From positions 1 through 64,000 of the IMG/VR virus record IMGVR_UViG_3300009499_000148: a stretch of 64,000 nt of DNA; one strand, written 5' to 3'. The position numbers and the translations under genes are program-made. The notes below the pieces were generated by a model. That model searched no databases. It had not been told where the DNA came from and saw only the letters and a program-made list of their open reading frames with translations. Positions 33,851 through 51,755 of this stretch are shown piece by piece; position 1 is the first letter of the stretch, and each line of letters opens with the position of its first letter. The DNA comes from a virus.

Positions 33851-36325
33851 TCACAGTTTCACAATCTCAACAGGACGATAGATGCTAGCTTTATTGCTCT
33901 TCCACGTTTCAATCGTCGTCGAAAGCGTCGTGTGCCAATCAGCGACCGTCTTTGAGAGACTAAACTCAGACAACACATACTGTCTGGCCTTCTCTCCAAG
34001 ACGTTCTCTTTCTTCATTACCCATGTCAAACATCTTAAGAAGAGCATCTGCGATTGTCTGGTTTGAACAGTAATCCTCGTAGATGTACGGACACAGCTGG
34101 CTTCCAACAAGAGTTTGCACCTCAACAGGAAGCGCGATACCATTCTCAGAACCATCACGATGGTCGACCACCTGACGTGTGAGGCCTCCCGTCTTTAATG
34201 CAATGATTGGTGTGCCGCACTGCATCGCCTCAAGTGTGCCTAAACCGAAGCCCTCATTACAGTTATGCGCTAAACATGTCTTAGTGGCATAAGAGTTATC
34301 TTTTTCAACTTCAAGATTAAACACCTTACATTCTACATCATCAACGTCAATCTCAAAAATACGTGCAATAATCAAGTTACCAACATTCCATGTTCGACAT
34401 GAACCATTCGAGCCCTCGGCATGTCGTCTATCACGCCACTCAATAGTCCAAATGCGTCCATTCTTGTTGTATCCATGACTATTATCATCATCATGTATCT
34501 GAGGACAATAGCCCAATGAAACAAGAAGTTGTTTCATATCAACCGCTAGACCATTTGAAATTGTTCTAACACGATTGACATACGTTGCATGTTGTTTATG
34601 AAACAGAACGCAACCGTCTCCTGCTTGATAGCCAGCTAAAAATGCCCTTTTGATGCTTTCATTTGATGAAAGAATTGCTCTTGGAATTCTTTTACCCTCA
34701 GAATATTCACCACAAACGTCTGTTATAAACGCTGAGTATACTGCTGGGTTCTTAAGATTTACTTCTAAGTGTCTGTCAAATTCTTTGATATAAGCAGTCT
34801 GTCCAAACACTCTTTCATACTTTTGGCGTAGCGTTTCTGCTAAATCAGCATCAAGCTTATTAAATGACACACTCATTGAATGAGTTGAACCATCAGCTAT
34901 CCATTCACCGAGAACATACGCGAAATCTTCATCAAGCTTGATATTTTCATGAGCAGCAAACTCGTCTATGCTCAATGCACAGTTATATTTAATTTTGCCA
35001 TTTTCACATCTGTATTTCATACGTGTTTTATTAAAATGCTCAAAACTTTCATCTTTAACTGAGTCCCAAACATTAAACTCATACGCATTAACACTGTCTA
35101 TTTTTTCGACACAATCTACGACATAGTCACCAACGCAAACATCAGACACCCTAATCCACTCAGCATGCTCAATCATGCTTTTTATATTTCTGCCAGGTAA
35201 TGAATTTGCGTGCTCACGCCTAATGACACGAATCGGATGTTCTTCTGTCATAGATAGTGTATCTGCATTTGACACATGTATCGTGTATAGTTTTCCAGAA
35301 TACTGTCTTTCATATTTTCGAACGACGGGCATGTATCTTCCCATATGCGTCAACACACTGTCGCCCGGTTCAATTGTTTCAATATCTTGGAATCCTTTTT
35401 CTGAAACAACTTTTGTTTTTGCAGGAAAACAGCTTATATTCACGACAACGTCAGAGATGTTATGCATCACCGCAACGTCTTCAAACAGAATTCTGTCCTT
35501 CGAAAAAATGACATCATTCTGTATCCCCAGCATCTCTGATGTTGCTACGAGGTTCGAGCCTGCCTGGTCGAATGGGTCCGTATGCATCAGAAGCGTCGCC
35601 TTTCTATGTCCGTGCTTCTTCTCAAGCATGTCCATGAACAGCTTCCATGCCTCGAGGAGGTCATTCGACCTCTTTCTCTTTGCATTTCTGTTTATCCAAA
35701 ATGACACGAAGTGGTCTTGGCGGTCAGGAGGAAGGAGACGCTTCTTAAAATCAGCCACGACGGTCGGCGAAAGTGGATGGAATATCTCCTGTGGGACAGC
35801 ATGAGGAATAAAATTAGTCTTCTCAGGAAAGTGTTCATGCACCATCTTATACGTGAGGTATGAATGACAATTGATGAGGTCTGTGCTTTCATACAGCACA
35901 CGATTGAACTCAGGCCACGGTAAGTTATCCCATACATGCCAATAAACTATCGGACATACCTGGTGTATCTCCTCTTCCATCTCCCATAGCCAAATGAAGA
36001 AGCGAGGGTCAGTAAAAATGAACAAGGCGTCTGGTTTTTCTGTCGCTAGGACCTGCCTCATCATGTTTGTGTCACCGAACCCGTCGATGGGTTTGATGAT
36101 GAAATCACCCGGCTCCCATGCAGCGCTCGTCGGTGGAACAGAGACCGTCTTATAGTCAGCGTGTTTGACAGCAGCGCCAAAACACTTGATGCGATACTCA
36201 CCCGTGTCTAGAAGTCCTGTTAGGAGGTATCGTGCCTGTGTACCAACTCCACTGGTTGATAAAGGATGGTCACAGAGCACCAATATCGTCTTCTTTTTTT
36301 TCTCAACAATTTTTACATTTTCCAT
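33851..36325 (-). CDS. Glycosyltransferase, GT4, interrupted by an intein (434 aa after splicing)
   Basis: DHPLSTSGVGTQAR and NRNAKRKR. Spliced junction VVNIS|CNEGFGLGTLEAMQCGTPIIA restores the EGFG..LEA motif. Confidence 0.92.
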   Translation of the reverse strand: MENVKIVEKKKKTILVLCDHPLSTSGVGTQARYLLTGLLDTGEYRIKCFGAAVKHADYKTVSVPPTSAAWEPGDFIIKPIDGFGDTNMMRQVLATEKPDALFIFTDPRFFIWLWEMEEEIHQVCPIVYWHVWDNLPWPEFNRVLYESTDLINCHSYLTYKMVHEHFPEKTNFIPHAVPQEIFHPLSPTVVADFKKRLLPPDRQDHFVSFWINRNAKRKRSNDLLEAWKLFMDMLEKKHGHRKATLLMHTDPFDQAGSNLVATSEMLGIQNDVIFSKDRILFEDVAVMHNISDVVVNISCFPAKTKVVSEKGFQDIETIEPGDSVLTHMGRYMPVVRKYERQYSGKLYTIHVSNADTLSMTEEHPIRVIRREHANSLPGRNIKSMIEHAEWIRVSDVCVGDYVVDCVEKIDSVNAYEFNVWDSVKDESFEHFNKTRMKYRCENGKIKYNCALSIDEFAAHENIKLDEDFAYVLGEWIADGSTHSMSVSFNKLDADLAETLRQKYERVFGQTAYIKEFDRHLEVNLKNPAVYSAFITDVCGEYSEGKRIPRAILSSNESIKRAFLAGYQAGDGCVLFHKQHATYVNRVRTISNGLAVDMKQLLVSLGYCPQIHDDDNSHGYNKNGRIWTIEWRDRRHAEGSNGSCRTWNVGNLIIARIFEIDVDDVECKVFNLEVEKDNSYATKTCLAHNCNEGFGLGTLEAMQCGTPIIALKTGGLTRQVVDHRDGSENGIALPVEVQTLVGSQLCPYIYEDYCSNQTIADALLKMFDMGNEERERLGEKARQYVLSEFSLSKTVADWHTTLSTTIETWKSNKASIYRPVEIVKL
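34262..35431 (-). mobile_element. Intein (390 aa) with LAGLIDADG homing endonuclease
   Basis: Block A CFPAKTKV, block B MTEEHPI, LAGLIDADG motifs AYVLGEWIADG and AFLAGYQAGDG, and blocks F/G VFNLEVEKDNSY..LAHN followed by +1 Cys. Confidence 0.93.
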
Positions 36326-37296
36326 TAAAGAACTCCTAACTCCTTCAGCTCATGTTCGCGAATTATGACGATATTAACGCTTTCATTACTTCGTCTAATG
36401 CATTCAAATTTTTCAAGTGAATGACTCAACACAAACTCGTTTTTTGTATCTACGAATGAATCACGACCCTTCCAATTTTTCACAAAAAAGTCAGGAAAAT
36501 ATAGGCGCTGTTTGCCTTTTGTGTCGAACCACACCAGGGGCTTCGGATGTGTCTCAAACACATACCCATTAGCATCCAAAAATTTTATGAACCCGAGTTC
36601 CCATGTGCCCTGAACATGGTTCGACCGGCCCAAAGAGTCGATGTAATCATACCACCTAACGTTCGTAAAAATTACATTATTAAAGTCGCCTCTTTCCCAC
36701 GCTTGCTGCACTGATATCGATAAAGCCGTTCGCGTCTTTGGGCTGTGCTTTTTACCGTAATACGGATTTCCCGGGCCACGGTATGACGCATTTTGACATG
36801 TTGAACCACAAAATTTTGCGCTTTTTCTGCTCTTAATAACGCTAAATGTAACACCACACTGCCTGCATACATTTTGTACTCTTTTATGGGAGCGATGCTC
36901 ATATGAACATTCACGTGAGCAATACGTTCGATTCAAAAGCTTTCTAGATGTAAAGTCATTTTTGCATGTAAGACACTGCTTCTTCTCATATGCTTCACTC
37001 TTACGAAGGCCATTGATTGACTCTCTAGCGCAACCGTCGTAGCAATGCTTGCGTGCTCTATCAATGTAGGAAGCAATAAACGTTTTACCACATGATGTAC
37101 AGTCAATGCTAACATCAGGATGCTTTTTGATGTGCAATTTTGTCGCACATGATTTGCTGCACGTTGAACGTAAAGCATCTTTCAAACGTTTTCTTACAAC
37201 GCTAAAATCAACAGCACATACATCACAACGCATGTGCATTATGACACGAGTTCTCTTTGGACCAATGTGCTCTAGGCTTTCGCTCAATAAAACCAT
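36325..37296 (-). CDS. Putative homing endonuclease: 4 zinc-finger repeats, NUMOD3 and PD-(D/E)XK nuclease
   Basis: CDVC..TCSKSC, CTSC..HCYDGC, CLTC..YCSREC, CRQC..FCGSTC. GNPYYGKKHS. VQGTWE..YFPDF..FVDTK. Confidence 0.8.
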   Translation of the reverse strand: MVLLSESLEHIGPKRTRVIMHMRCDVCAVDFSVVRKRLKDALRSTCSKSCATKLHIKKHPDVSIDCTSCGKTFIASYIDRARKHCYDGCARESINGLRKSEAYEKKQCLTCKNDFTSRKLLNRTYCSRECSYEHRSHKRVQNVCRQCGVTFSVIKSRKSAKFCGSTCQNASYRGPGNPYYGKKHSPKTRTALSISVQQAWERGDFNNVIFTNVRWYDYIDSLGRSNHVQGTWELGFIKFLDANGYVFETHPKPLVWFDTKGKQRLYFPDFFVKNWKGRDSFVDTKNEFVLSHSLEKFECIRRSNESVNIVIIREHELKELGVL

Positions 37297-39286: not shown

Positions 39287-39553
39287 TCAGTCGTCGTTGT
39301 AGCCACTACCCGCGCATGCGCCACACGGAGGTGAGCCAGCGCTGTCATAGTAACCAGACCCGTTGCATGCAACACATCTCGACCCGATGCTATCAGCATC
39401 GAGACGTCGTAACAGCTCTTCACGAACAGACATGATGCGCTTCCTGTTATCCATCTCATTGCCTATCGATGATTCGCTTTCGAGCAAATCGACTAGCTCA
39501 ACAGTCGTCAATCCTTTCAAATATGTTCTGTTGTGTGGTAAATCACCGTTCAT
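39287..39553 (-). CDS. Small protein with DnaJ-type zinc finger
   Basis: CVACNGSG...CGACAGSG. Confidence 0.6.
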   Translation of the reverse strand: MNGDLPHNRTYLKGLTTVELVDLLESESSIGNEMDNRKRIMSVREELLRRLDADSIGSRCVACNGSGYYDSAGSPPCGACAGSGYNDD

Positions 39554-39558
39554 GATAC

Positions 39559-40137
39559 TCACCCGTCCTTCAGCATCAACGTATCGATGCATTCACATAT
39601 GATGTGCTCAACAGCCAACATCCTCTCCTGGATGATTGCTGTCGTTGAGCCGCCGACAGCAATAGCGACATCAGACAGTTTCTCAAGCCTCGTGTCTTTC
39701 CCACCCACAAGCCCAATCGTCTTCAGGGCCCTCTCTCTAGCATACTCCATTGCATTGAGGATGCTCTTGGATGAACCCGATGTGCTGATACCAAGGATGA
39801 CATCATCAGGATTACACAGCGCTTCTAGCTGTCTCCTAAAGACATAGTCGTACTCCCAATCATTGGCAATCGCAGTAAGCGCTGATGTGTCTGTTGTGAG
39901 CGCGATGGCAGGAAGACCCTCCCTATCACGTCTGAAGCGACCAACGAGCTCAGCCGCCATGTGCTGTGAGTCAGCGGCGGAGCCGCCATTACCACATATG
40001 AATAAGCGACCACCCCTGTTGAAAGCTGAAACAATCAGACATGCTGCATCACAAATCTCTGGAGCAACATCATGAAGCGCGGGCCGGAAGCCACGCCTAT
40101 CATCAATGAGCTCATGTATGTCTTTAAGAAGCTTCAT
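39559..40137 (-). CDS. gmhA: Phosphoheptose (sedoheptulose-7-phosphate) isomerase, SIS domain
   Basis: ICGNGGSAADSQHMAAELVGRF, ALTTDTSALTAIAND, VF.RQLEAL, GISTSGSS and IQE..HIIC. Confidence 0.92.
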   Translation of the reverse strand: MKLLKDIHELIDDRRGFRPALHDVAPEICDAACLIVSAFNRGGRLFICGNGGSAADSQHMAAELVGRFRRDREGLPAIALTTDTSALTAIANDWEYDYVFRRQLEALCNPDDVILGISTSGSSKSILNAMEYARERALKTIGLVGGKDTRLEKLSDVAIAVGGSTTAIIQERMLAVEHIICECIDTLMLKDG

Positions 40138-40140
40138 TTC

Positions 40141-41067
40141 TTAACCCAGTGTGTTCGTCTTTCGAAGCTTCTTGATTATGGGTTGCTCACTGTCATAAAC
40201 CCTCTTGACACCGTTACCCATCATCGATGTCGTGATGCGAACGTAATCAACGAGCTTCTTCACACCCTCAGGTTCAAGGCTTGCGCTCTGGTCTGAACCG
40301 TATGACGTTCTATCGAGTGTGATATGGAACTCAAGCATCTTTGCACCAAGAGCGACGACGGCGGGAACCCATGACAGGCCTGAGTAGTGATTTGAAAAAC
40401 CGATGTTCGGTCGCGACCTATCGTTGAACGTCATAGTCGTCATGCTCAGGTTCTTGAGACCCATATCCACGGCACGTGCAAGGCGTGGGATGATGTCGAA
40501 TGAATCGTTCAGAGTTCGAATGTAGCTCAGGTTCATCTCTTCTGGCTTCGTTGGATATGTGCTTGTGCAATGGAGGATTGTGTCAAGGCTTGTGCCAAGA
40601 ATATCACACGCTCTGAATATCTGTTCCTCTGTCGCCATTCCCGTCGATAGGATGACTGGCTTCCTCGTCATGACCAACCGCTCAAGAAAACGAACGTCAG
40701 TCAGCAATGCTGATGCGACCTTATGAAAGGGTACATCGAAATTGTTATCGATGAAATCGACTGACAACTTATCCCAACATGAGACGAACCATCCGATGCC
40801 ACGCTCACGACAGTGCTTATCGATGGCGTGGTATTCATCTAGACCAAACTCAAGTCCCTCTTTTTGAGCACGGTTCGTCTTTCCCCACGGGCTTTCACGA
40901 GGAGCATCTAGCTCTTCCTGTGTGTAGCATGTGTTGATGTCCCGCTTCTGAAACTTTATGTAATCGCAACCACTATCTGCAGCTACGTCGATAAGCTTCC
41001 TAGCAATGTCAATCGAACCGTTTGCGTTAATCCCTGCCTCGGCAACAAGCGTGATACCATTAATCAT
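40141..41067 (-). CDS. neuB: N-acetylneuraminate/ulosonate synthase family (short form lacking the C-terminal SAF domain)
   Basis: AEAGINANG, IKFQKR, KVASA, VILSTGM, LHCTSTYP, GFSNH and LEFHITLDR..GSDQSASLEP. Confidence 0.93.
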   Translation of the reverse strand: MINGITLVAEAGINANGSIDIARKLIDVAADSGCDYIKFQKRDINTCYTQEELDAPRESPWGKTNRAQKEGLEFGLDEYHAIDKHCRERGIGWFVSCWDKLSVDFIDNNFDVPFHKVASALLTDVRFLERLVMTRKPVILSTGMATEEQIFRACDILGTSLDTILHCTSTYPTKPEEMNLSYIRTLNDSFDIIPRLARAVDMGLKNLSMTTMTFNDRSRPNIGFSNHYSGLSWVPAVVALGAKMLEFHITLDRTSYGSDQSASLEPEGVKKLVDYVRITTSMMGNGVKRVYDSEQPIIKKLRKTNTLG

Positions 41068-41121
41068 ATCTCTAACCCCTAAGCTGTCCACAACGTAAGT
41101 TTCATTGTATAGTCCTATTGT

Positions 41122-41592
41122 TTACTTAAAAAATGCACGTATATATGTTTTAAAGTTTTTTACAAAAACAAAGAACATATGAAACTGTAATGATATAGAT
41201 GTGTCATACTTCAACATGATTCGATATGCTCTCAACCATGCATTAAATTCAAAACGAACTCTATGGAAATCAACTCTATCATCAGAAAAATCTTCGCTGA
41301 GTCTTATATAGCCTTCTTTTTCTTGTTGAGTATGTCCATATTCATGTAATAAAACACATGCACACTCTTTAATATTAAAAGGCCAATGTATTGAATATAA
41401 AGAACTAGCTTTGGGTGAAAAATCTTCACTTAAAAATAAAAAAGGCCTTAAGGCAAATTTCGGCGATATTCTTACTTGAAGTGGTATTTTTTCATACTGA
41501 AAATTTCGATTGTCAAATATCAATTTTTGTGAATGAGGTTGACTATCAATAATATGATTCCAAAGCCTATTACACTTAATGTTATTACACAT
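41122..41592 (-). CDS. AT-rich inserted gene, HExxH metallopeptidase-like (ImmA/IrrE-like)
   Basis: VLLHEYGH plus downstream EFNAW. TGATG overlap at 41592. Markedly AT-rich. Confidence 0.6.
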   Translation of the reverse strand: MCNNIKCNRLWNHIIDSQPHSQKLIFDNRNFQYEKIPLQVRISPKFALRPFLFLSEDFSPKASSLYSIHWPFNIKECACVLLHEYGHTQQEKEGYIRLSEDFSDDRVDFHRVRFEFNAWLRAYRIMLKYDTSISLQFHMFFVFVKNFKTYIRAFFK

Positions 41593-42383
41593 CACCACGC
41601 TCTCCATCCTGCATCGATCGCGATATCGGCGCCCGTGACGTAGCTCGACATATCGCTAGCAAGGAATGCAATCACGCCCTTGAGCTCCTCGGGTCTTCCA
41701 ACGCGGCCCAACATGGTCTTCTTCTGAAGCTCTTCCTCGAACCATCCCCTGTCGTTATCAAAGCTACCCGGCCGTGAGAACGATCCAGGAGAGATGCTGT
41801 TGCAACGTATCCCATGCTTTCCACCGATGGCTGCGATGTATCGCGTTGCCTGCAACATCGCTGCCTTCATCGCACCGTATTGTATCGCATTTCCCATTCC
41901 AGGTGTGTCCCTGTAGATTGCATGATTGGGTGCAACATGTCCAAGCATCGATGCGACATTGATGATGCTCCCACCACCCTGTGCTTTCATCACACCATAC
42001 ACTACCTGTGTCAGCATCAGAGGCCCAACGAACCCATCAGTCGCTGCACGTGTCGCACCGTCGACCGTGAGATTCTCAAAATCAAGCTCCTTGCTCCACT
42101 CATGGCTGTTATTGACTAGAATGTCGATGCGACCCGTTCTGTTGAGAACGACATCAACGATTGATGACATCGGGTCTGCTGTGACGTCAGCGACGACTGT
42201 GTGAAAGTTGCTGACATTGATGTGTGTCGTGAATGATGTGCTCTTACCCCTCGACACGGCAAAGACATCACAGCCAAGCTCACTCAATGTCTCACACATC
42301 GGAGCGCCGAGCCACCCAGTGCCTCCAGTGACTATCGCAGTGCGACCCTTGAGGTCAATCAGCTCATTTATCGGTTTCATCAT
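41592..42383 (-). CDS. Short-chain dehydrogenase/reductase
   Basis: VTGGTGWLG, GRIDILVNN, IINVAS, YGAMKAA and RCNSISPG. Confidence 0.92.
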   Translation of the reverse strand: MMKPINELIDLKGRTAIVTGGTGWLGAPMCETLSELGCDVFAVSRGKSTSFTTHINVSNFHTVVADVTADPMSSIVDVVLNRTGRIDILVNNSHEWSKELDFENLTVDGATRAATDGFVGPLMLTQVVYGVMKAQGGGSIINVASMLGHVAPNHAIYRDTPGMGNAIQYGAMKAAMLQATRYIAAIGGKHGIRCNSISPGSFSRPGSFDNDRGWFEEELQKKTMLGRVGRPEELKGVIAFLASDMSSYVTGADIAIDAGWRAW

Positions 42384-43191
42384 ACCCAAGAATTCTATTA
42401 ACAAATGCAACGTTGTTCATGAAAAGCTCTTTCTCTTTGCCGTTCTCACCGCGTGCTGTCTGAAACGTCACATACTCTACACATGGCCATCCCTTGATGT
42501 ACTCGATATCATCCAACGAGGTGTTTCCCTGACCGAGTGGCACTGTCGAACCAAGCCTCTTTGAAAAATCCTTCACATGAACATTATCAACCCATTTGCT
42601 GACATGCTTATCGTAATCTGTGATGTAGATGCCGTGCTTCGTCATGTTTCCCGTGTCCATCGTGATACGAAAAACATCATCATGCTTGTTCAAGAGCTGC
42701 ATCATCGCCTCTAACGTGTACGGGTCGAGGTCTGTCTCTAAAGAGAACGTGATGCCTTTCCATATCCTAGCGACATTGACGAGCTCCATCATCACGCAAA
42801 GCATGAGTGATGTATCGTGTGCAAGCGATGCCTTCTCAAGGAATGGAAGCACAAGCTTTCTGATGTGTTGCTTCTGCAACGTTACACATGCATCAGCCAA
42901 CACTCTGCTTCTGAACGATGACGATATGAACTCATCAGATATCAGAACGTCTAGACACACTGCACTGACATCAACGGGTAGCTTTCTCACATCACACCTG
43001 TCAAGCTGCAACACTGACTCACGCTCAGTCCATATCCACTCGATGTGTGATGCTTTGACCTCACGTGCTATGTCAAACTCTTCTTCCCATCGACCCCATG
43101 GAAAGCTCTGGATGAAATCACTCTCCTGTGGAAGAAGACGTCCCTGTATCACACCGTACATACGCGGTGTCGTGCGTATGAAATCACTCAT
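42364..43191 (-). CDS. Sugar phosphate isomerase/epimerase (xylose-isomerase-like TIM barrel)
   Basis: GVIQGRL..QSFP..WEEEF, IEWI, SLET, DTGN, VHVKD and TVPLGQG. Confidence 0.82.
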   Translation of the reverse strand: MSDFIRTTPRMYGVIQGRLLPQESDFIQSFPWGRWEEEFDIAREVKASHIEWIWTERESVLQLDRCDVRKLPVDVSAVCLDVLISDEFISSSFRSRVLADACVTLQKQHIRKLVLPFLEKASLAHDTSLMLCVMMELVNVARIWKGITFSLETDLDPYTLEAMMQLLNKHDDVFRITMDTGNMTKHGIYITDYDKHVSKWVDNVHVKDFSKRLGSTVPLGQGNTSLDDIEYIKGWPCVEYVTFQTARGENGKEKELFMNNVAFVNRILGYDETDK

Positions 43192-43375
43192 CGCTTTTCA
43201 ACATCCGTGAGACGCTGTCAGTGATTGACGACGTCAATGAACCCACAAGAGGTATGTGCAACAGAGAATGTGCATTTATGATATCGATTCGATTGATAAG
43301 CACATTCTCTGTATACTGAATGTTTCGACCTGAGAAGTCAAGGGCATCAGTCATACACACGCCCGACGCTTTCAT
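43184..43375 (-). CDS. Small hypothetical protein
   Basis: 63 aa filling the gap, with overlaps on both sides. Confidence 0.4.
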   Translation of the reverse strand: MKASGVCMTDALDFSGRNIQYTENVLINRIDIINAHSLLHIPLVGSLTSSITDSVSRMLKSDE

Positions 43376-43941
43376 CGATTGTCCTCGTACAGTGCGGCGC
43401 GCCTGGCAGAGCGTTCTAGCTCTGAGATGATGCCGCTAAGACCGAAAATACAATCACCTGAAAGAATCAGCTCCTGCATACCTATGAACGTAGATGTTTC
43501 TGTCGTGTTGAGATTCCAGATACGCTTGAACTGCTTAGAGTGTAGCATGCAAACATCACCCATCGGTTCTCCATCATCGTTAACGATTGCAAAGACGTAA
43601 TACGTGTCATCGCCGTCTTTATTGAATGACTCAACATGGTCGTGTGTAGCAGTGATTGTCGTTCCATTTTTCACAGACTTACAGCTCAATCTTGCGAATC
43701 GCCGACCGTTCGAATAAAGCAAGATGCCGCCGTACCTCTCGTCTAGGCTCGGTATGAATGATGAAAACAGCTGCCTCGATGAAGACTTTCCACAAAACGC
43801 GTCGATTAGTTGTTTAATTGTCACGATACGAACACAATCAACATTCAACTTGGCGCTCAACATCCGCTGCATATATTTTTCAAAATCATGGCCCTGCTTA
43901 GCTCTGCCTGATTCTTTATCATACGTCATGATGCTCTCCAA
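43372..43941 (-). CDS. Hypothetical protein, possible restriction-endonuclease-like fold
   Basis: KQGHDFEK...LDERYGGI...LSCKS loosely resembles G..FE / D / xCK of PD-(D/E)XK nucleases. Confidence 0.4.
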   Translation of the reverse strand: MESIMTYDKESGRAKQGHDFEKYMQRMLSAKLNVDCVRIVTIKQLIDAFCGKSSSRQLFSSFIPSLDERYGGILLYSNGRRFARLSCKSVKNGTTITATHDHVESFNKDGDDTYYVFAIVNDDGEPMGDVCMLHSKQFKRIWNLNTTETSTFIGMQELILSGDCIFGLSGIISELERSARRAALYEDNR

Positions 43942-44154
43942 TCAAATCTCATTAGCACACGTGCGTGTGCATTCATCGCAACAGTTGCAGACATCATCAT
44001 CACAACCGTTGACGTCGCTATCATATGGGCATGGATGACGTTTAGTGCCAGCGTTTATGCCGCACTTTTTGCATTTTCTTTTTCGTTGTCTCTTAACGTC
44101 AATCGGCTTCACACTCTCATCACTGCTTTCATCATGTTTCATATGATTGTCCAT
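43942..44154 (-). CDS. Small Cys-rich zinc-binding protein
   Basis: CKKC..HPCPY..CNCCDECTRTC. Confidence 0.6.
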   Translation of the reverse strand: MDNHMKHDESSDESVKPIDVKRQRKRKCKKCGINAGTKRHPCPYDSDVNGCDDDVCNCCDECTRTCANEI

Positions 44155-44822
44155 CCACCGTCAATGATTATCTCTGCACCCGTCATGTATCTGTTATCTT
44201 GTGAAAGAAGCATTCTCATGGCTGGCTCAAGGTCCTTCAGTGAAGCCATCCTACCCATCGGTGCATACGAGCCATATAGGTTCTTAAACTCAATCGGTTG
44301 GTCATGTGAGACACCGCCAGGAACGATGCAGTTGACGCGTATGTCGGGTGCAAGATGCACAGCAAGGATTCGTGTCAGATGTGCAACGCCCGCTTTCGAC
44401 ACAGAGTAACCAACGTGCTTATGAGCGCCGTCATACATGTCTGGTCGAGCAGAGACGATGCCAGTCGATGCACCAAAATTAACGATGTTGCCGTGCTTGT
44501 TGTTTCGTGCATACTCACGACAGACTGAAAAGAGCGACGTGAGATTGACCTCAAGACAGTCTCTAAAGCTCTGCAAAGGAAGGTCGAACAGCGTTCCTCT
44601 CTTCTCACCTGAAGCAACGTGGTCGTTGAATGCGAACAGATTCACTATCGATGATGCCTGGCCCTGCGGAGATGCAAAGAACTCCCTGACATACGCTTCA
44701 TCAGTGAGGTCATGGCCGAGCGCGACATCAAGCTCGATGACCTCCTCAAGCAACGTATTCATTATGAACTGCACCATGTGCTGTCCAATCAATCCCCTAG
44801 AACCTGCAACTATCACAGTCAT
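44139..44822 (-). CDS. Short-chain dehydrogenase/reductase
   Basis: VAGSRGLIG, IVNFGAS, YSVSKAG, IRVNCIVPGGV and TGAEIIIDGGW. Confidence 0.9.
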   Translation of the reverse strand: MTVIVAGSRGLIGQHMVQFIMNTLLEEVIELDVALGHDLTDEAYVREFFASPQGQASSIVNLFAFNDHVASGEKRGTLFDLPLQSFRDCLEVNLTSLFSVCREYARNNKHGNIVNFGASTGIVSARPDMYDGAHKHVGYSVSKAGVAHLTRILAVHLAPDIRVNCIVPGGVSHDQPIEFKNLYGSYAPMGRMASLKDLEPAMRMLLSQDNRYMTGAEIIIDGGWTII

Positions 44823-45697
44823 TTTTCGACCTCAATAATTGAAAAATTTTTCGACCTTACATCACTTTCACGTATTCTAACTAATTTTAGACAATGCTCA
44901 GCAAACCATTGATTTTGTTCTTTATCAGTTTGAATTTTTTTCAAAATTACTTTATCTCTAGCAGAACTTGAATTAAGAAGTTGTTCTATCGATCTATCAA
45001 GACCATGCCAATAATCACCATCAACTTGAATATAAAGCTTTTTAGACTTAACATAAAAATCGATCGGCCACTTATGAACAAACACTTGATATTCAACATC
45101 ATCAATTCCAAACAGTTTTTGAAGAAAAATATCTACATGACATTCAGGCTGTGTTTTTTGTCCATATGATGAATTTCGCTTCATCGTTTCATGTTGTCTA
45201 GCCCTAATCGACGGATCATTTTCAATGGCTTTTTTCATAGAAAAGCTTTTTTTCATTTTGACTTCAGGTCTATTTTGAGATTCTGTAAGAGAGATTATCC
45301 GTTTTTCTCTAACAACTGGATCTATCCAACTAATTTTTAGCTTTTCACTTTTTTTGAATCGAACTTCAGGTCTATTTTGTGCTTCTTTATTTGAGATTCG
45401 TTGTTTTTCTTTGACTGTCGGATTAGCTTGTATCTTTTTTGATATCTCAGAACGTATTTTTCTTACACCAGGTTGAGACCAGATTTCTTTTTGAGCTTTA
45501 CTCTTTTTTTCTCGAATATCATCACGATTAGCAAACTCTTTCATTGCTAGTTTATGATTTTTTTTAGCTTCTACTGTTTGACAACCATTTCTTTGTGAAA
45601 GATCTCTAATCTCTTTCCATTTTTCATCATGATGCTTACGATGAATACGCATTCCTTTGTTTGATTGAAAATTTCGAAGACAAATATCACAAATCAT
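44819..45697 (-). CDS. Putative homing endonuclease: C2H2 finger, 17-aa helical repeats and Vsr/DUF559-like nuclease
   Basis: CDIC..F....GMRIHRKHH, about 8 repeats of PEV+EK+S type, and TQPE..WPIDFY..IQVDGDYWHG..D..QN. Very AT-rich. Confidence 0.82.
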   Translation of the reverse strand: MICDICLRNFQSNKGMRIHRKHHDEKWKEIRDLSQRNGCQTVEAKKNHKLAMKEFANRDDIREKKSKAQKEIWSQPGVRKIRSEISKKIQANPTVKEKQRISNKEAQNRPEVRFKKSEKLKISWIDPVVREKRIISLTESQNRPEVKMKKSFSMKKAIENDPSIRARQHETMKRNSSYGQKTQPECHVDIFLQKLFGIDDVEYQVFVHKWPIDFYVKSKKLYIQVDGDYWHGLDRSIEQLLNSSSARDKVILKKIQTDKEQNQWFAEHCLKLVRIRESDVRSKNFSIIEVEK

Positions 45698-46656
45698 CTT
45701 TTATTCCATTCTTTAACTTGACTAATAAAATCAATGCCAACATTTCGTGACCACTGTTGACATATTTGCTGTGTAATCAGCCCCATTGGTTCTGAGTTAA
45801 TACAACCCTTTATCAATTGCCCGTTGAGACGATTACATGGAATAAGATTAGTGAACGTCCCAGTGAAAAATGCCTCATCTGCATTTAGAACATCATAAGG
45901 TTCAAAATTACATTCAATAACCTCGAGACCAAGCACCGGTGCTATGACATCGATGATGTACGTCATGCTACATCCACGAAGCACATTCCTGAGTTCTGGA
46001 ACGATAATCTTACGGTCTTTAATGATGACAAAGTTCGCACCTGTGCCCTCTGCGATAAGACCCTGTTCATCAAGCAGTAGCGCCTGCGCGTCCTTACCGT
46101 AGTGATTGGCCTGGATGTTCGCCAACATTAGATGAGCCCTTGAACGAGATTTCACCTTAGGGTCGAGGTATTGAGACGATATCTGTCTCTGCGGCACGAT
46201 GACAGCATTCGCACCAGTCTCATAGAAATGAGCCATCGTCTTTGCTGTCTTACTGAGAGGCCATGCGTTGATAATCCACGTCGGCTGGCCCCATTCCTCA
46301 CCCTCATCAAGCTCAAATACCTCACGATACACAGGTAGTGGGCCACGAGAGACATTAATCATGAAACGATACTCGTCATCTCTATAATGGGATTCATTCC
46401 TAACCATGACATCATGGATGATATCACGGAGCTCATTTCGCGTCTTATTGATGGGAATTGAAAAGCTTCTCATCGATGAAAAAAGTCTATCGATGTGCTC
46501 GTCGAGTAAGAAATGACGATGAACAAACGTTCGATGCATCTCAAAACAACCATCACCAAACATGAATTGTGAATCAGTCCATGAGATGGAAAGCTCCTCA
46601 TCAGGAAGCCAACGACCATTCTTATAACCGATGCGGCCCGTAGAAATTGGTCTCAT
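45694..46656 (-). CDS. PLP-dependent aminotransferase class IV (BCAT/D-aminotransferase fold)
   Basis: FMFGDGCFE, HIDRL, KVKSRSR, EGTGANF, LRGCS and ADEAFFTGT. Confidence 0.9.
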   Translation of the reverse strand: MRPISTGRIGYKNGRWLPDEELSISWTDSQFMFGDGCFEMHRTFVHRHFLLDEHIDRLFSSMRSFSIPINKTRNELRDIIHDVMVRNESHYRDDEYRFMINVSRGPLPVYREVFELDEGEEWGQPTWIINAWPLSKTAKTMAHFYETGANAVIVPQRQISSQYLDPKVKSRSRAHLMLANIQANHYGKDAQALLLDEQGLIAEGTGANFVIIKDRKIIVPELRNVLRGCSMTYIIDVIAPVLGLEVIECNFEPYDVLNADEAFFTGTFTNLIPCNRLNGQLIKGCINSEPMGLITQQICQQWSRNVGIDFISQVKEWNKR

Positions 46657-46690
46657 TGGATGACCCTCAACAAGATACAGTTAAAAAAAA

Positions 46691-47410
46691 TCATCCCTCA
46701 ATCTGCCTCTTCTTCCAATCATCATTACGATACTGATTGATGACCGTCAGCCCAGGATGTTTCATGAAGAAATCGACAATCTCAGAACGAGTGCATCCAG
46801 AGCCAAGGATGCGATGCACTGTCGAAATGACCCAATAATCTTGCTCATAATCAAGCGTAAGACGGATGTCCTTCTCAATCGGTTCAACATAAAATCCAAG
46901 CATCGCCTGCTTCAGACCCGGCAACAGATGCTTCCACACCATCTCAGTGCTGATGTTTGGATTAACGTTGTCAAGCGACGATACTATCGACGACGTCTTG
47001 AATGCCCAGCCATGTGAGCCAAGATACGCATCCATGTTAGGAGCAACGACGTCTAGGCCCCTTGCTTCAAGCTGGTCCATCGACTGCTGACACAACCCAC
47101 CATCAAAGAATGGGTCGTCAGCATCGACTGTGATGAACTGTTTCACACCAAAACGCTCACATGCCTGTGCCCACCTCAACATCTTATTCTGAGCAGGGCC
47201 CCTGTGGATACGTTCTCCGACGATTGGACGCAACATCTTCACAAGAGCATCATCAGAAGAGTCATCTGTCGTCGCGATGATGGGAGAAAATCCGAACCCG
47301 ATGCATCTATGAACGACATGCTGTATCACAGTCGTCGTGCCAAGAGGCAGGAGACACTTTCCAGGAAGCCGCGTCGATGCAGTTCGAACAGAGATGATTG
47401 CATCAATCAT
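46691..47410 (-). CDS. CMP-ulosonate synthetase / cytidylyltransferase (SpsF/PseF/KdsB-like)
   Basis: VRTASTRLPGKCL, ATT..SDD, VDADDPF and IRLTLDYEQD. Confidence 0.88.
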   Translation of the reverse strand: MIDAIISVRTASTRLPGKCLLPLGTTTVIQHVVHRCIGFGFSPIIATTDDSSDDALVKMLRPIVGERIHRGPAQNKMLRWAQACERFGVKQFITVDADDPFFDGGLCQQSMDQLEARGLDVVAPNMDAYLGSHGWAFKTSSIVSSLDNVNPNISTEMVWKHLLPGLKQAMLGFYVEPIEKDIRLTLDYEQDYWVISTVHRILGSGCTRSEIVDFFMKHPGLTVINQYRNDDWKKRQIEG

Positions 47411-47663
47411 TCCCATGCTCCTTCTCAAGAACACGCATCAGATGCTTGAACGTCGAACGCATGAACGCGGGGGCGGGTGTTGTTGCACCGTCCATCCAAT
47501 GCTTAATCGTCTGTTGCGACACACCCATCTTCTCAGCAAGGTCTGCAAGCTTAAATTGCATCAATGCATATGCATTCACTAACGCTGTCCTACATGCGGG
47601 TGCATCCTCAAAATCAACAGCACGAAGCTCATCCATCAATGCAATGTATTCACTGACATCCAT
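47403..47663 (-). CDS. XRE/Cro-type helix-turn-helix regulator
   Basis: LADLAEKMGVSQQTIKHWMDGATTP. Confidence 0.8.
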   Translation of the reverse strand: MDVSEYIALMDELRAVDFEDAPACRTALVNAYALMQFKLADLAEKMGVSQQTIKHWMDGATTPAPAFMRSTFKHLMRVLEKEHGND

Positions 47664-48592
47664 TATGTGAATAACTGTATCATGAATTGATGAACGTTTT
47701 CACTGGCGACATCGACACGATTCAAATGAGCGCCACGGCACATACCAACGATTGCATCAACGTCTGTTTCAAGCAAACGCGTGTATAGGTCATGCTCAGG
47801 ATGTGAAAATGTGCTCCATGGATGCTTGTCTGGGTGAAGGTCAATGTTTATGTACCTACAACCGGCCTCGATGAGGTCAGTGTATGCAGTCGAACCGAAT
47901 CCGACGACTGCGCGTGATGCCAACGCCAGCTCAATGCCCTCCGCGGGATACCACACATCATCCCACACAACAGTGCAGTCTGACGATGAGACTGCCTGAT
48001 GCTTGCGGCGTTGCTTAACAACGACAGAGAATCCATCGTCTTTGAGCGCCGTGATGACAGCGTTTGCTGATGCAACATCACCCGCATCAGGATAAAAGAT
48101 GAGGATGCGCTTTTCATCGACATCAACCCTTGATGCTCCATCCCAGAATGGAATTGGGTGTGGCGGGTGGAGAAGATTGAGACGAGAGCCACGAGAACGA
48201 ACATGCTCAATCATCCATCGTGTCGGACAGACATACACATCACACAGCGCAGAGACGTCATCGTGGTGCCAATTACAATCGAACCCGTGCTGTATCGATA
48301 CTCTCTTAACGTTGCTACTGAACCTCTCTGCAGGAAACTCAAGCGACACAGCGTAATCAACGACAGACGAAGTATCAAACGGCCTAACCTCTGCCCAGGG
48401 ACAGCGTTCACTGACACGGTCGAGCAGCACCTGAAAGTTCTCGTGTCGTGCGAAACCGTTATACTTCTCACTTCGTCTTGAGACATCGAACGACTGGACG
48501 ACATCTGGCATGACATGATGTAGCACCCTACTGAAGGGTATCATGTAGCGAAGCTCAGTGAGCCCCGTCATGATGAACGATGCGCGCTTCAT
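47663..48592 (-). CDS. Putative GT-B transferase (candidate ulosonic-acid/sialyl-type transferase)
   Basis: SIQHG motif, CDVYVC, VVVKQR and VVGFGST. Next to the CMP synthetase. Start at the ATGA overlap, 48592. Confidence 0.5.
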   Translation of the reverse strand: MKRASFIMTGLTELRYMIPFSRVLHHVMPDVVQSFDVSRRSEKYNGFARHENFQVLLDRVSERCPWAEVRPFDTSSVVDYAVSLEFPAERFSSNVKRVSIQHGFDCNWHHDDVSALCDVYVCPTRWMIEHVRSRGSRLNLLHPPHPIPFWDGASRVDVDEKRILIFYPDAGDVASANAVITALKDDGFSVVVKQRRKHQAVSSSDCTVVWDDVWYPAEGIELALASRAVVGFGSTAYTDLIEAGCRYINIDLHPDKHPWSTFSHPEHDLYTRLLETDVDAIVGMCRGAHLNRVDVASENVHQFMIQLFT

Positions 48593-49227
48593 CTCTTTGG
48601 ATGGCCCAATGTGATTATGTAGAGCTGTGGAGATGCTGGCCAAAGCATCTTGAACCTGATGCGTTCGTAATCGTAATCAACGAGCGCTGGCACCTCATCA
48701 CAGATGATTTTATCAATGTCGGGTGCATCAGAATACCCGAAGCGCCCAGCGATGCTCTTCACAAACGCCTGGACCTCGGGTTGCATCACAAACTCATGAC
48801 GCCATAGGCATGAATGAAGCGTGTTACGTTTATCATACGCCCACTCATGCTCACCGTTCCTGACCCAACCGACCTTGAACGCATCGAAGCGCCAATGGTC
48901 GCCGAGCCCAAAATCAAGCATGATGCGCCCACCAACATTGAGATGAGCATCACACCTATCGATGAAATCACGTGGATTACGTGAAAAATACGGACACCTC
49001 GTCGAGACTATCAGGTCGTACTTTCGCTTGAGGCTCCACTCTGAGTTGATGTCCCACGAACCTGCTCCACCCAGACGAATGTCATAGAAGTCTCTGACAG
49101 AGCCTGGCACAGACGCTGTGAAAGCGTTCTCTCCATCGAACCCCAAGAACGCAGTTGCATCAGACATGACGCCCTCAAGTATCTGTCGATACTCTGCAAA
49201 AATGTATGGGTCAGACTTACCCATCAC
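48589..49227 (-). CDS. SAM-dependent methyltransferase-like protein
   Basis: AFLG, WDIN and YDLIVSTRCPYF..P..F..HLNVGG follow the class I MTase layout with a degenerate motif I. Confidence 0.6.
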   Translation of the reverse strand: MMGKSDPYIFAEYRQILEGVMSDATAFLGFDGENAFTASVPGSVRDFYDIRLGGAGSWDINSEWSLKRKYDLIVSTRCPYFSRNPRDFIDRCDAHLNVGGRIMLDFGLGDHWRFDAFKVGWVRNGEHEWAYDKRNTLHSCLWRHEFVMQPEVQAFVKSIAGRFGYSDAPDIDKIICDEVPALVDYDYERIRFKMLWPASPQLYIITLGHPKR

Positions 49228-49946
49228 ATGCTACCTGACATGAGACCGTCGATAAAACTGAACTCATACTCACCGACATGCTCATGAAGGAATGCAATCA
49301 GCTCTGTCGTCATCTCACTAGAAAGGTAGTTGCTGTCCCATTCACATGCATGATACATGACCTCGAGTGCATCATCACGCATGACCAATGGCTTCTGCGG
49401 AGGAGCACAGTGATACATCACATGTCTCAAAGATGCATAGGCACCGTCATACGTCTTCATCGCATAATCATCTGGGCTCAATGCAAACAACGTAAAGCCC
49501 CTATCGTGGAATGCACGCATCGCATCAGGGCTCATACGCCATGCAGGAGGCCTGATGATGGGCTTGAATGCATCGATGAGGCCGGCCTTGGTGACACCTT
49601 CGAACATCCCATCGATGACACACAATGCATCGTCGTAGCTCAGGTGCTGTAATTCATCATTATTTGACCTGCCCGGTATCCCATGATGAAGACCATGATA
49701 TGCAAGCTCATAGTTATTCTTGTCTAGACCACGCAACACATCACAGAAGTCGGGATGCTCATGAAGCCAAAGGGGTTCTGCTGTCGCCGTGTGCCCCACT
49801 GTTCTCCAGTATGCTATCGGGACGAACAGCGTGAACTTTACATCAGGAAATTCCTTGATGATGCGCTCACACTGCCGAAGCACACGTATTGATGACATCG
49901 GGTGTGGAGAAACATCGTCTATTGATATGTTCAGAGGTGTTGTCAT
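49224..49946 (-). CDS. Polysaccharide deacetylase family (DUF2334/CE4-like)
   Basis: ISIDDVSP, FTLFVP, ELAYHGLHH, IRPPAW and MYH. Confidence 0.82.
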   Translation of the reverse strand: MTTPLNISIDDVSPHPMSSIRVLRQCERIIKEFPDVKFTLFVPIAYWRTVGHTATAEPLWLHEHPDFCDVLRGLDKNNYELAYHGLHHGIPGRSNNDELQHLSYDDALCVIDGMFEGVTKAGLIDAFKPIIRPPAWRMSPDAMRAFHDRGFTLFALSPDDYAMKTYDGAYASLRHVMYHCAPPQKPLVMRDDALEVMYHACEWDSNYLSSEMTTELIAFLHEHVGEYEFSFIDGLMSGSM

Positions 49947-50809
49947 TTTTTGGGTCTTCCAAACGTCCACCCCAATTCAAGATACTTGTCGACTTCATCT
50001 ACTTTGACATGCTTATATCCAGACATCTCTGGATTCGACATTATCTTTCGACCTGAAAGACTTTCAGTCATTTTCTTTTTATTTTTAGGATTTGAGAATT
50101 GGCGCTTAGTTGCTATACGTTGCTTTTCTTTCGTTTCTGGATTTGACATCGCTAACTTTATTGCATCACTTCGACGTTTTTTAACGTCAGGCCTTGCATC
50201 AGTAACTTTTCTACGAAGTTTTCGATCGGCATCAGTCCACATTTTTCGAAGACCTTTGCTGCGATTTTCTTTTGCTTTTGGCGTCGACAAGCTTTCTTTA
50301 ACAGCTTTTGAATGACGCTCCTTTACGTCTGGTTTATTTAAAGCATTTTTTATCGCTACATTACGCTTTTCACGATTTTCAATACTAGCATTTGCCCATA
50401 CTGCTTTGCTAGCAGCTGATTGTCTAGCCTTTACTTCAGGTAATGCTAACGTTTCTTTCATTGAAAGGCTTAGTCGTAGTAATGCTTCTTCACTCAAAGA
50501 CGAGCCTCCAGCTAGTTTATTATAACCGTACCTTGAATCATTCGTTTTCCATAGTGCTATATGTTCAATTTCTCGTTTATCAAGCTCTTCTCTTGATGAA
50601 CATTCACAAACTAACTGCCACTTGAACCCGTTAAAGCCGTATTTCTTTAGAGCATTATCTAAATGAAGATTATGACCTTTCTTGCTATATCTCTTAGAGA
50701 GATATTTCAATAAATCAACTACTGCAACTCGATTTCTTGTTTGTCCAACATAACGTTTTTGATTTACAATGTTCGTTGCACAATAAATCACTCCATAAAC
50801 ATTAGACAT
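49943..50809 (-). CDS. GIY-YIG homing endonuclease with 17-aa helical repeats
   Basis: GVIYCATNIVNQKRYVGQT, ALKKYG, REIEHI and GYNKLAGG. Repeats PEVKARQS, PDVKERHS, PDVKKRRS and PETKEKQR. C-terminal YLELGWTFGR. Confidence 0.88.
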   Translation of the reverse strand: MSNVYGVIYCATNIVNQKRYVGQTRNRVAVVDLLKYLSKRYSKKGHNLHLDNALKKYGFNGFKWQLVCECSSREELDKREIEHIALWKTNDSRYGYNKLAGGSSLSEEALLRLSLSMKETLALPEVKARQSAASKAVWANASIENREKRNVAIKNALNKPDVKERHSKAVKESLSTPKAKENRSKGLRKMWTDADRKLRRKVTDARPDVKKRRSDAIKLAMSNPETKEKQRIATKRQFSNPKNKKKMTESLSGRKIMSNPEMSGYKHVKVDEVDKYLELGWTFGRPKK

Positions 50810-51755
50810 ACTTTTCAATTAACTCCACTAATGATTGACCAGCGCTTTTTCTAATATTATAAACAGGAAAATTTCCAGCATTGACACGATTTGCTAGTGT
50901 TGATAATGCTGTCTCGAACGACTCATTGAATGATTCTCCACAATTTCTGACATACTCTGGGATGCTTCCTCCATTCATATGATAAAGGATGGGAAGGCCA
51001 CAAGCCATCGCCTCTAGAACGTGGTTGGCGCCTGCCTCTTCCTCAGACGCTGTCACATACACATCATGCATCGGAAGAGACCTCGCAAGCTCATCGACGT
51101 CTAACACACCAGATGATGTGAATGTTGCCGTATCGGGTGCACGTCCGTAGAACGTGAACGTGTGCCCATTGTTCTTACACCACGCATCGAGCTCATTGTA
51201 GAACGCGAAGCCCTTCTTCGGGTTCATCGACCAATGATGCGTCACGAACCTGATGTTCTTCTGAGGAATTGGACGACTCACACGTCTATGTGCAAAGAAC
51301 GCTGGATTGGGTGAATTCCAAATGACAGCATAGTCATTCATCATCTTTCCTAGCTTGAAAAGACTGTCATTGACCATCGTGGAGCACCACTCACTTGGAA
51401 ATATCACGAAGTCAGACACGGGTGCAGTTCGAATGACGAGGTTTCTCAACTCTGGTTTCCCATGTGTTCCAATGTCTCCGACGCGCTGCACGATGAACGG
51501 TCGCTGTGATGCATTCGGGAAGATTGCCATGATTGCATCGTGTGAAAGCTCATCACTCGTTGCACCCTGTCGTGGGTCCATGCAGAAAATGACATCGACA
51601 CGTGCATCATCACGGAATGCATCTGATAATGAAAAGATGACATCATGACCAGCTGCACGTGCCTCATTGATGAATGACTGGAGGATGCGATTACCTCCTC
51701 CCCACGGGCCAGTGACCGGCTTGCGATTGCAGTATATCGTTAGTCTTGTTGTCAT
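50802..51755 (-). CDS. Glycosyltransferase, GT4
   Basis: GPWGGGN, HWSMNPKKG and YVTASEEEAGANHVLEAMACGLP. Confidence 0.9.
   Translation of the reverse strand: MTTRLTIYCNRKPVTGPWGGGNRILQSFINEARAAGHDVIFSLSDAFRDDARVDVIFCMDPRQGATSDELSHDAIMAIFPNASQRPFIVQRVGDIGTHGKPELRNLVIRTAPVSDFVIFPSEWCSTMVNDSLFKLGKMMNDYAVIWNSPNPAFFAHRRVSRPIPQKNIRFVTHHWSMNPKKGFAFYNELDAWCKNNGHTFTFYGRAPDTATFTSSGVLDVDELARSLPMHDVYVTASEEEAGANHVLEAMACGLPILYHMNGGSIPEYVRNCGESFNESFETALSTLANRVNAGNFPVYNIRKSAGQSLVELIEKYV

Follow-up and report, generated by a model that had tools for sequence, protein, structure and literature searches.

A GmhA-type isomerase paired with a short NeuB in a phage sugar operon: a possible route to a ten-carbon, CMP-activated amino ulosonic acid

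The stretch of DNA analyzed here, referred to below as the window, comprises the first 64 kb (64,000 nucleotides) of a 106,059-base virus contig from IMG/VR (record IMGVR_UViG_3300009499_000148). It contains an operon in which the gene of a NeuB-family synthase lacking the SAF domain (short NeuB) is directly followed by that of a GmhA-type sedoheptulose-7-phosphate isomerase. Judging from its gene content and the conservation of that content in relatives, the operon very probably encodes one pathway to an amino ulosonic acid activated with cytidine monophosphate (CMP), other than N-acetylneuraminic (Neu5Ac), legionaminic (Leg) or pseudaminic (Pse) acid. More tentatively, with a confidence that falls slightly short of even, the GmhA–short NeuB pair is proposed as a route to a ten-carbon 3-deoxy-dec-2-ulosonic acid from heptose-7-phosphate and phosphoenolpyruvate (PEP), which would then be modified by a short-chain dehydrogenase/reductase (SDR) and a UlaE-like epimerase, aminated by a fold-IV aminotransferase and activated with CMP.

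An earlier, sequence-only reading of the window had listed two SDRs, a TIM-barrel epimerase, a BCAT-fold aminotransferase, a CMP-synthetase and a GT-B protein with a QHG motif around neuB and gmhA. Every one of these genes was confirmed and is intact, and all lie in one orientation, on the minus strand, as do all the genes of the sugar region; the 3-nt gap described between neuB and gmhA was also borne out, with the junction reading TAA-gaa-ATG. Copies of NeuB and GmhA 98% identical to those of the window were found on several other contigs (P0001, P0121).

The NeuB of the window ends about 20 residues past the barrel, without a SAF domain; in the NeuB family, this C-terminal SAF (antifreeze-like) domain closes the aldose pocket. 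Its scores were under the equivalog cut-offs of both NeuB (TIGR03569, 205.3 vs. 399.65) and PseI (TIGR03586, 156.1 vs. 340.25), and its structural matches were PseI (8H2C) and a short NeuB from Leptospira (6NCS). The metal-binding histidines are kept, with the GFSNH and EFH motifs aligning with those of PseI 8H2C, and residues K46, K124, S149, N187, H235, and H256 show little or no variation across the family alignment. Just ahead of the GFSNH metal-binding strand, an insertion of 28 residues (about 201–228) was also observed, at a place where family members differ in length. P0022 and P0027 have fewer extra residues there, and those in the window probably form a loop on the barrel face remote from the active site.

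The best matches of GmhA in the PDB were phosphoheptose isomerases only (1TK9, E 1e-43). Its zinc and catalytic motifs, QH..E (QHmaaE) and Q..H (IQE....H), as well as the STSGxS phosphate loop (STSGSS), align to 1TK9 and 5I01, and these positions are (nearly) invariant among the GmhAs linked to NeuB. The score against the TIGR00441 equivalog was 189.4, narrowly under the cut-off of 209.45, and a fused relative (P0125) reached 206.7. GmhA was 48–52% identical to named cellular GmhAs and 27–43% identical to most of the other NeuB-linked phage GmhAs. An open reading frame (ORF) of 101 amino acids (aa) at 39287-39592 (minus strand) overlaps the end of GmhA and carries a C-terminal DnaJ-like zinc-ribbon repeat, CxxCxGxG. 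It occupies the position that belongs in relatives to a minimal HAD protein (mini-HAD, described below), to which it is unrelated.

The short, SAF-less NeuBs form a subfamily of 270–300 aa, which was traced to 260 confirmed stretches in viral contigs, at least about 600 in bacterial genomes and more than 540 in metagenomes. In 162 loci, genes were called and clustered up to 8 kb from NeuB. The CMP-synthetase (76 loci), SDRs (72), a TIM barrel (50) and a viral protein of 100 aa (45) were frequent neighbors, followed by a KdsC-type HAD (30, mostly bacterial), GmhA (25) and a small cupin (22); aminotransferases of the DegT, class-III and class-IV types were also found, and C-methyltransferases were frequent (28 loci). 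One order recurs nearly unchanged in phages: CMP-synthetase, aminotransferase, VOC, TIM, SDR, GmhA, NeuB, and the 100-aa protein. The order in Chloroflexia is CMP-synthetase, NeuB, TIM, GFO, SDR, GmhA, and NeuB. The SDR accompanied the TIM barrel in 50 of 55 loci, and the slot after the CMP-synthetase was filled by class-IV, class-III or DegT aminotransferases. Moreover, the CMP-synthetase was fused to the class-IV aminotransferase in three loci (L009, L010, L167) and to a HAD in about 24, and these fusions tie tailoring and activation to one pathway. The module is widespread across uncultured phages and several bacterial phyla and is not unique to this phage. The version found in the window has an aminotransferase of class IV and a pair of SDRs, its GmhA lies downstream of NeuB, it lacks a phosphatase, and selfish elements have been inserted into it. 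The view that the NeuB, SDR, epimerase, aminotransferase and CMP-synthetase genes make up a single pathway outside the Neu5Ac, Leg and Pse routes was reinforced by the conserved module, the fusions and the absence of the classical partners (see below). The same applies to the class-IV aminotransferase as a pathway member, given its fusion to the CMP-synthetase in three loci and the slot that it shares with class-III and DegT enzymes.

By its motifs, the 100-aa viral protein is a minimal HAD phosphatase, in which all four signatures (FDIDGT, TARG, GKP and IDDK) were recognized. Examples are L006:11198-11491 and L027:8383-8688, together with 35 further distinct sequences; there was no match in Pfam or NCBIfam at E 0.001 or better, and HAD matches were weak, at about E 0.01. 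Of 69 viral loci, 34 have the mini-HAD after NeuB, and it was never found beside a HAD of the KdsC/Kdn-9-phosphate (Kdn-9-P) phosphatase type (p 1e-11), which adjoins NeuB in 49 of 58 bacterial loci; Kdn is 3-deoxy-D-glycero-D-galacto-nonulosonic acid. With one or the other phosphatase beside NeuB, the NeuB family as a whole would therefore run a phosphorylated route, as in the CMP-Kdn pathway. We put at about even the chance that the operon of the window makes an amino 3-deoxy-2-ulosonic acid and activates it with CMP by such a Kdn-like, sugar-phosphate route.

The sequence-only reading had also proposed a functional tie between GmhA and NeuB and a survey of their adjacency in other genomes. 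In this survey, GmhA was located at most 4 kb from NeuB in 29 of the 150 loci with enough flanking sequence, and 49 of 252 distinct NeuBs had a GmhA no more than 3 kb away. The GmhA-positive loci were enriched for the TIM barrel (23/29, p 2e-7) and the SDR (25/29). The GmhA label required nine changes on the NeuB tree, and at least six of these changes were forced by supported branches. GmhA has therefore been recruited repeatedly, the pairing having arisen at least six times, in agreement with the GmhA of the window being closer to cellular GmhAs than to most NeuB-linked phage ones.

Furthermore, gene fusions were detected near short NeuBs. A GmhA is fused to a following HAD of the KdsC/Kdn-9-P-phosphatase type at L105:4095-5309, and the reverse order, HAD-GmhA, was found at L173:3278-4333, L150:12601-13776, L142:6865-8010, L070:5539-6546, and L146:11553-12686. 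These fusions are carried by cyanobacterial, Nitrospiraceae, Polyangiales and viral contigs, and the GmhB family was not found among the matches of the fused HAD domains. Among the closest relatives of the GmhA of the window (54–60% identity), GmhA is fused to a C-terminal mini-HAD in proteins of 294–304 aa (P0125, P0132, P0134, P0138). The top matches of NeuB and those of GmhA have nine values of longest-contig size in common (162523, 162240, 89172, 17526, 13436, 6565, 6452, 4409, and 3493), and the nearest clade would therefore carry both genes. This clade of the protein search, 60–68% identical, was not recovered in the metagenome scan, so that its gene pairing is deduced from the coinciding contig sizes.

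Five Chloroflexia genomes each had a single strong GmhA match (about 191–198 bits). In G001 (locus L117), the sole genome in which coordinates were compared, this single GmhA is the gene inside the NeuB locus. Neither an HldE-type kinase above the cut-off (best 95 bits vs. 345) nor GmhB was found in these five genomes. The loci of metagenome-assembled Chloroflexia genomes (L117, L129, L138, L140, L091) contain two short NeuBs, two to three CMP-synthetases, GFO, SDR, TIM, GmhA, and a KpsC/S-like transferase. The other conserved genes at GmhA-positive loci encode glycosyltransferases, PhoH, Glf, methyltransferases and the KpsC/S-like transferase, and neither a sugar kinase nor a heptose nucleotidyltransferase was among them. 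The tie between the two enzymes was thus strengthened by the recurrent adjacency, by the fusions to ulosonate-phosphate phosphatases, and by genomes with GmhA and no HldE or GmhB. For these relatives there is good support for GmhA feeding NeuB, and the same is likely in this phage. A different explanation of the neighborhood, namely that the pair formed by GmhA and the SDR is a copy of PtmF/PtmA from the legionaminic acid route of Campylobacter, was rejected, PtmF being a 326-aa oxidoreductase and not a SIS protein (PMC4481668).

The enzymes that the sequence-only reading had reported as missing (NeuC, the Pse/Leg dehydratase, DegT, an acetyltransferase, and HldE/HddA/GmhB), some of which it had suggested looking for beyond the window, were searched for on the whole 106-kb contig, for which CheckV estimated a completeness of about 29%. 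No Epimerase_2 (PF02350, NeuC), DegT (PF01041) or extended-SDR dehydratase was found there, the only matches to PF01370 being the two classical SDRs. PfkB, GHMP, NTP_transferase and HAD domains, which would have indicated a heptose kinase, GmhB or a nucleotidyltransferase, were likewise absent from the contig, as were N-acetyltransferases and other N-acyltransferases. Neither tblastn nor hidden Markov models (HMMs) built from the genes of the relatives gave any match on the contig to the absent pathway genes. The reported absences thus extend to the entire contig; since this is only 29% complete, they hold for the sequenced part and are no proof for the whole genome.

The following scheme is proposed for the window, with all substrates, the order of tailoring and the carbon count inferred from the genes. 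GmhA would convert sedoheptulose-7-phosphate into D-glycero-D-manno-heptose-7-phosphate, which the SAF-less NeuB would join to PEP, yielding a ten-carbon 3-deoxy-dec-2-ulosonate phosphate, that is, Kdn plus one CHOH. The phosphate would be removed by a phosphatase, a role that the mini-HAD or the KdsC-type HAD may play in relatives; no such gene lies in the window. A secondary hydroxyl would next be oxidized to a ketone by the KduD-like SDR, the neighboring carbon epimerized by the UlaE-like TIM enzyme, and the ketone converted into an amine by the class-IV aminotransferase. The second SDR may adjust another center before the acid is activated by the cytidylyltransferase, and the adjacent GT-B protein would transfer the CMP-sugar to its acceptor. 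In the sequence-only reading, activation with CMP would instead come before oxidation and amination, and the two SDRs might act like the pairs that epimerize CMP-nonulosonates in acinetaminic acid pathways. As no N-acyltransferase is present, the amino group might be left free or carry a methyl group, and a gene weakly resembling methyltransferases is located at 48589-49227 (Table 1). In the literature, no paper was found linking GmhA to NeuB, dealing with deculosonic acids, or describing this module.

The genes assigned to these steps are collected in Table 1.

Table 1. Genes of the sugar operon and the ORFs inserted in it (coordinates are those of the window).
Feature	Coordinates	Strand	Evidence
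GmhA-type sedoheptulose-7-phosphate isomerase, 192 aa	39559..40137	-	SIS_2, E 9e-27
Short NeuB-family PEP-aldose condensing enzyme, 316 aa	40141..41091	-	PF03102, 209.2 bits vs. cut-off 22.1
161-aa ORF with HEYGH zinc-protease-like motif, between SDR and NeuB	41122..41607	-	No family match or homologue; absent from L006
Classical SDR, 272 aa	41592..42410	-	adh_short_C2, E 6e-35; 49% identical to L006 orthologue
UlaE-like TIM-barrel keto-sugar(-phosphate) 3-epimerase/isomerase, 275 aa	42364..43191	-	Family profile match to UlaE
189-aa ORF and 70-aa Cys-rich ORF, window-specific	43372..44154	-	No family match
Second compact SDR, 227 aa, intact	44139..44822	-	adh_short_C2, E 1e-26; 50% identical to L006:6842-7588
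Zinc-finger and Vsr-like homing endonuclease	44819..45697	-	Weak zf-C2H2 and Vsr matches; absent at that position in L006
Class-IV (BCAT/DAAT-fold) PLP (pyridoxal phosphate) aminotransferase, 320 aa	45694..46656	-	PF01063, 141.9 bits vs. 28.5, E 3.5e-41
CMP-ulosonate synthetase, 247 aa	46691..47434	-	PF02348 (CTP_transf_3), 46 bits vs. cut-off 22.6, E 7e-12
GT-B-fold protein, 326 aa, candidate CMP-sugar transferase	47663..48643	-	QHG at residue 118; no Pfam match
Weakly methyltransferase-like protein, 212 aa	48589..49227	-	Methyltransf_23, E 0.012; 38% identical to L006:2936-3583

The nearest named relatives of the 272-aa SDR in NCBIfam were gluconate-5-dehydrogenase, KduD and PtmA-like enzymes; gluconate 5-dehydrogenase and KduD oxidize a secondary hydroxyl of (2-keto-3-deoxy) sugar acids. 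As a single sequence, the TIM barrel reached 21.2 bits with AP_endonuc_2, under the cut-off of 31.1, and a profile of 32 orthologues (alignment A3) matched UlaE (3CQH) at E 1.6e-15 over positions 24–256, followed by IolI, IolE and ketose 3-epimerases. UlaE-type barrels epimerize the carbon adjoining a ketone. The second SDR, which keeps the GxxGxxG (GSRGLIG) and YxxxK (YSVSK) motifs, has a truncated look in Pfam; the idea that its N-terminus had been cut by the homing endonuclease was discarded, as the alignment with the L006 orthologue covers its whole length and the glycine motif is retained. The class-IV aminotransferase had an archaeal BCAT (5MQZ) as its best PDB match, with the catalytic lysine aligned and the YxR carboxylate motif read as YRF, and its scores stayed under all the equivalog cut-offs for BCAT, DAAT and ADCL; (R)-selective amine transaminases are among the enzymes of fold IV. 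The CMP-synthetase showed weak KdsB matches, a full-length match to PDB 6OEW at E 5e-12, and the N-terminal motif R..S.RLPGK. The 326-aa protein was placed by Atlas in viral GT-B-fold families, near DUF6716 and Glyphos_transf, and is 30% identical to the L006 orthologue at the same position.

The possibility that the product has nine carbons is considered less probable than the ten-carbon product, although far from negligible. In that case, the short NeuB would join mannose-6-phosphate (Man-6-P) and PEP, giving Kdn-9-P, which would then be oxidized, epimerized, aminated and activated with CMP, and GmhA would either isomerize fructose-6-phosphate to Man-6-P or be dispensable. Several observations count in its favor and against a ten-carbon product. 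The nearest relative of the window, L006 (NeuB 57% identical, with the same order from the 212-aa protein to a sigma-like gene), has a 117-aa cupin (10845-11198) exactly in the GmhA slot. The best functionally defined matches of this cupin family were D-lyxose/D-mannose isomerases and a mannose-6-phosphate isomerase, and it was found in L006 and 15 other loci (alignment A6), either in the GmhA slot or beside the mini-HAD. GmhA and the cupin never occurred together (0/150 loci, p 0.024). As both enzymes convert ketoses into aldoses of the manno configuration, their exchange may reflect two substrates (heptose-7-phosphate or Man-6-P) or one substrate made in two ways, and the exclusion equally fits both supplying a manno-aldose for a nine-carbon product. 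On the tree, the NeuBs linked to GmhA are mixed with those linked to the cupin, and no column of the NeuB alignment separates the GmhA-linked enzymes from the rest, so that no residue signature tracks GmhA. Most of the bacterial short NeuBs are paired with the Kdn-9-P-phosphatase-type HAD (the 49 of 58 loci given above) and have no GmhA, which is the arrangement of the CMP-Kdn pathway (PMC6200933).

Other points bear on the ten-carbon product in the same direction. No published test of heptose-7-phosphate on an enzyme of the NeuB family was found, and the study of the Kdn-9-P synthase did not include it among the substrates (PMC6200933). No phosphatase was detected in the window or the contig when HMMs of the mini-HAD and the KdsC-type HAD were run against all six frames. 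A phosphatase hidden among the small ORFs was also rejected, since this six-frame search was empty and the 101-aa ORF is a zinc-ribbon protein. Moreover, genes for heptose activation could lie in the remaining part of the phage genome. In favor of a ten-carbon product, by contrast, a preprint reports the detection by mass spectrometry of CMP-activated C10 ulosonic acids in Magnetospirillum gryphiswaldense, with no biosynthetic genes named (bioRxiv 10.64898/2026.04.20.719630). This is the sole printed evidence found for CMP-linked ulosonic acids longer than nine carbons; nevertheless, the C10 marker differs from Leg by CH2 and not by CHOH (10.64898/2026.04.20.719630), and these species may therefore stem from C-methylation as well as from chain extension.

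Against the nine-carbon product stands the GmhA of the window itself, whose identity to cellular GmhAs (48–52%), with all the zinc, catalytic and phosphate residues kept, does not indicate a changed chain-length specificity. In addition, a phosphomannose isomerase is normally already present in hosts, and the one strong GmhA match of each of the five Chloroflexia genomes lies in the NeuB locus where this was compared (G001). Because the GmhA of the window looks fully canonical, heptose-7-phosphate was rated the more likely aldose for this NeuB, and the chance that the product has ten carbons was judged to be about one half.

A second explanation is that GmhA serves a separate glycan containing ADP- or GDP-heptose, with the remaining enzymes supplied by the host or encoded in the unsequenced 71% of the genome, and that its adjacency to NeuB merely reflects the packing of genes in a sugar island. 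The incompleteness of the contig, the several glycosyltransferases encoded in the island, and the usual presence of HldE and GmhB in Gram-negative hosts are compatible with it. It was nevertheless considered improbable in view of the 3-nt junction, the repeated and independent origin of the adjacency, the fusion of GmhA to ulosonate-phosphate phosphatases and not to GmhB, the lack of a kinase or nucleotidyltransferase at any GmhA-positive locus, and the genomes with GmhA and without HldE or GmhB.

A decaying operon whose product is no longer made, as might be suspected from the homing endonucleases, the orphan ORFs, the conserved order broken by four window-specific ORFs (one of them a homing endonuclease) and the loss of the phosphatase, with neither mini-HAD nor KdsC-type HAD on the contig, was deemed very improbable, since none of the eight conserved genes is shortened and their catalytic motifs are intact, the inserts lie between genes and never inside them, 98%-identical copies of NeuB and GmhA exist on other contigs (P0001, P0121), and sugar phosphatases are often redundantly supplied (PMC6200933). 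The catalytic residues were found intact in GmhA, NeuB, the aminotransferase and both SDRs. As for the four window-specific ORFs wedged between the conserved genes of the operon, the homing endonuclease gene overlaps that of the aminotransferase on one side and that of the second SDR on the other, by 4 nt each, and L006 has a methyltransferase in the place of the 189-aa and 70-aa ORFs, with no similarity between them.

Among the known systems, the proposed pathway most closely recalls that of CMP-Kdn, described in Bacteroides thetaiotaomicron (BT1713-BT1715) and Prymnesium parvum, which uses Man-6-P and PEP, a HAD phosphatase of the KdsC family and a CMP-synthetase (PMC6200933). Both combine a NeuB-family synthase with a CMP-synthetase, neither has NeuC or a nucleotide-sugar precursor, and bacterial relatives of the NeuB of the window adjoin a HAD of the Kdn-9-P-phosphatase type. 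The operon of the window differs by the addition of GmhA, two SDRs, a UlaE-like epimerase and an aminotransferase, and by the lack of a phosphatase in the window; with these added enzymes, the product would therefore be tailored, aminated and possibly C10. The Leg (LegB/C/H/G/I/F) and Pse (PseB/C/H/G/I/F) pathways share with it the NeuB-family condensation, the activation with CMP and an amino-bearing sugar; a Maf/MptE-like transferase is present in phage relatives, and the SDRs resemble the PtmA-like SDRs of flagellin modification. In contrast to those pathways, the contig has no 4,6-dehydratase, DegT, N-acetyltransferase or hydrolyzing 2-epimerase, the NeuB is SAF-less and under the PseI and NeuB cut-offs, and amination would follow the building of the chain instead of preceding it.

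The ADP- and GDP-heptose pathways (GmhA, HldE/HddA, GmhB, HldE/HddC) have in common with the window their first enzyme, GmhA, with complete catalytic residues. They differ in that no kinase, GmhB or nucleotidyltransferase was found on the contig, in the GmhA-positive relatives or in the five Chloroflexia genomes, and in that the GmhA of relatives is fused to phosphatases of the KdsC type and not of the GmhB type. In the tailoring of Kdo8N in Shewanella, an oxidase and an aminotransferase act on the finished ulosonic acid. The oxidation of a hydroxyl of the ulosonic acid followed by transamination would be similar here, although with other families, an SDR and a fold-IV or class-III aminotransferase.

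The origin of the contig from a phage rests on the IMG/VR virus record itself, on a baseplate-wedge protein (26713-28581), and on the presence of an intein-bearing glycosyltransferase, homing endonucleases and a PD-(D/E)XK nuclease. As 106,059 bases were rated about 29% complete, the phage would be a jumbo phage, and a comparison of the region with phage records by Megablast yielded no match. Several glycosyltransferases are encoded in the sugar island. One of them, a GT1 gene at 33851-36325 (minus strand), is interrupted by an intein (Hint and LAGLIDADG). Against the 422-aa orthologue of L006, which is free of the intein, the gene aligns in two segments (36298-35429 and 34276-33854), so that the insert covers about 34277-35428. 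Genes resembling homing endonucleases of the zinc-finger and Vsr-like, GIY-YIG and NUMOD3 types were located in the island at 44819-45697, 49943-50818, and 36325-37296.

Sialic-acid-like sugars govern recognition among cells, phages and immune systems. To our knowledge, every known one contains eight or nine carbons, and the few routes to them are well mapped. If GmhA feeds NeuB, a ten-carbon member would be added to this family, and the mass-spectrometric signals of higher-carbon CMP-ulosonic acids would find an explanation. The pathway, if true, would represent a new class of sugar from phages and from bacteria such as Chloroflexia, as well as the first role of a fold-IV aminotransferase in a sugar pathway. 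Its enzymes, namely a NeuB that accepts heptose, a fold-IV transaminase acting on sugars and a HAD phosphatase of 100 aa, would then become available for glycoengineering.

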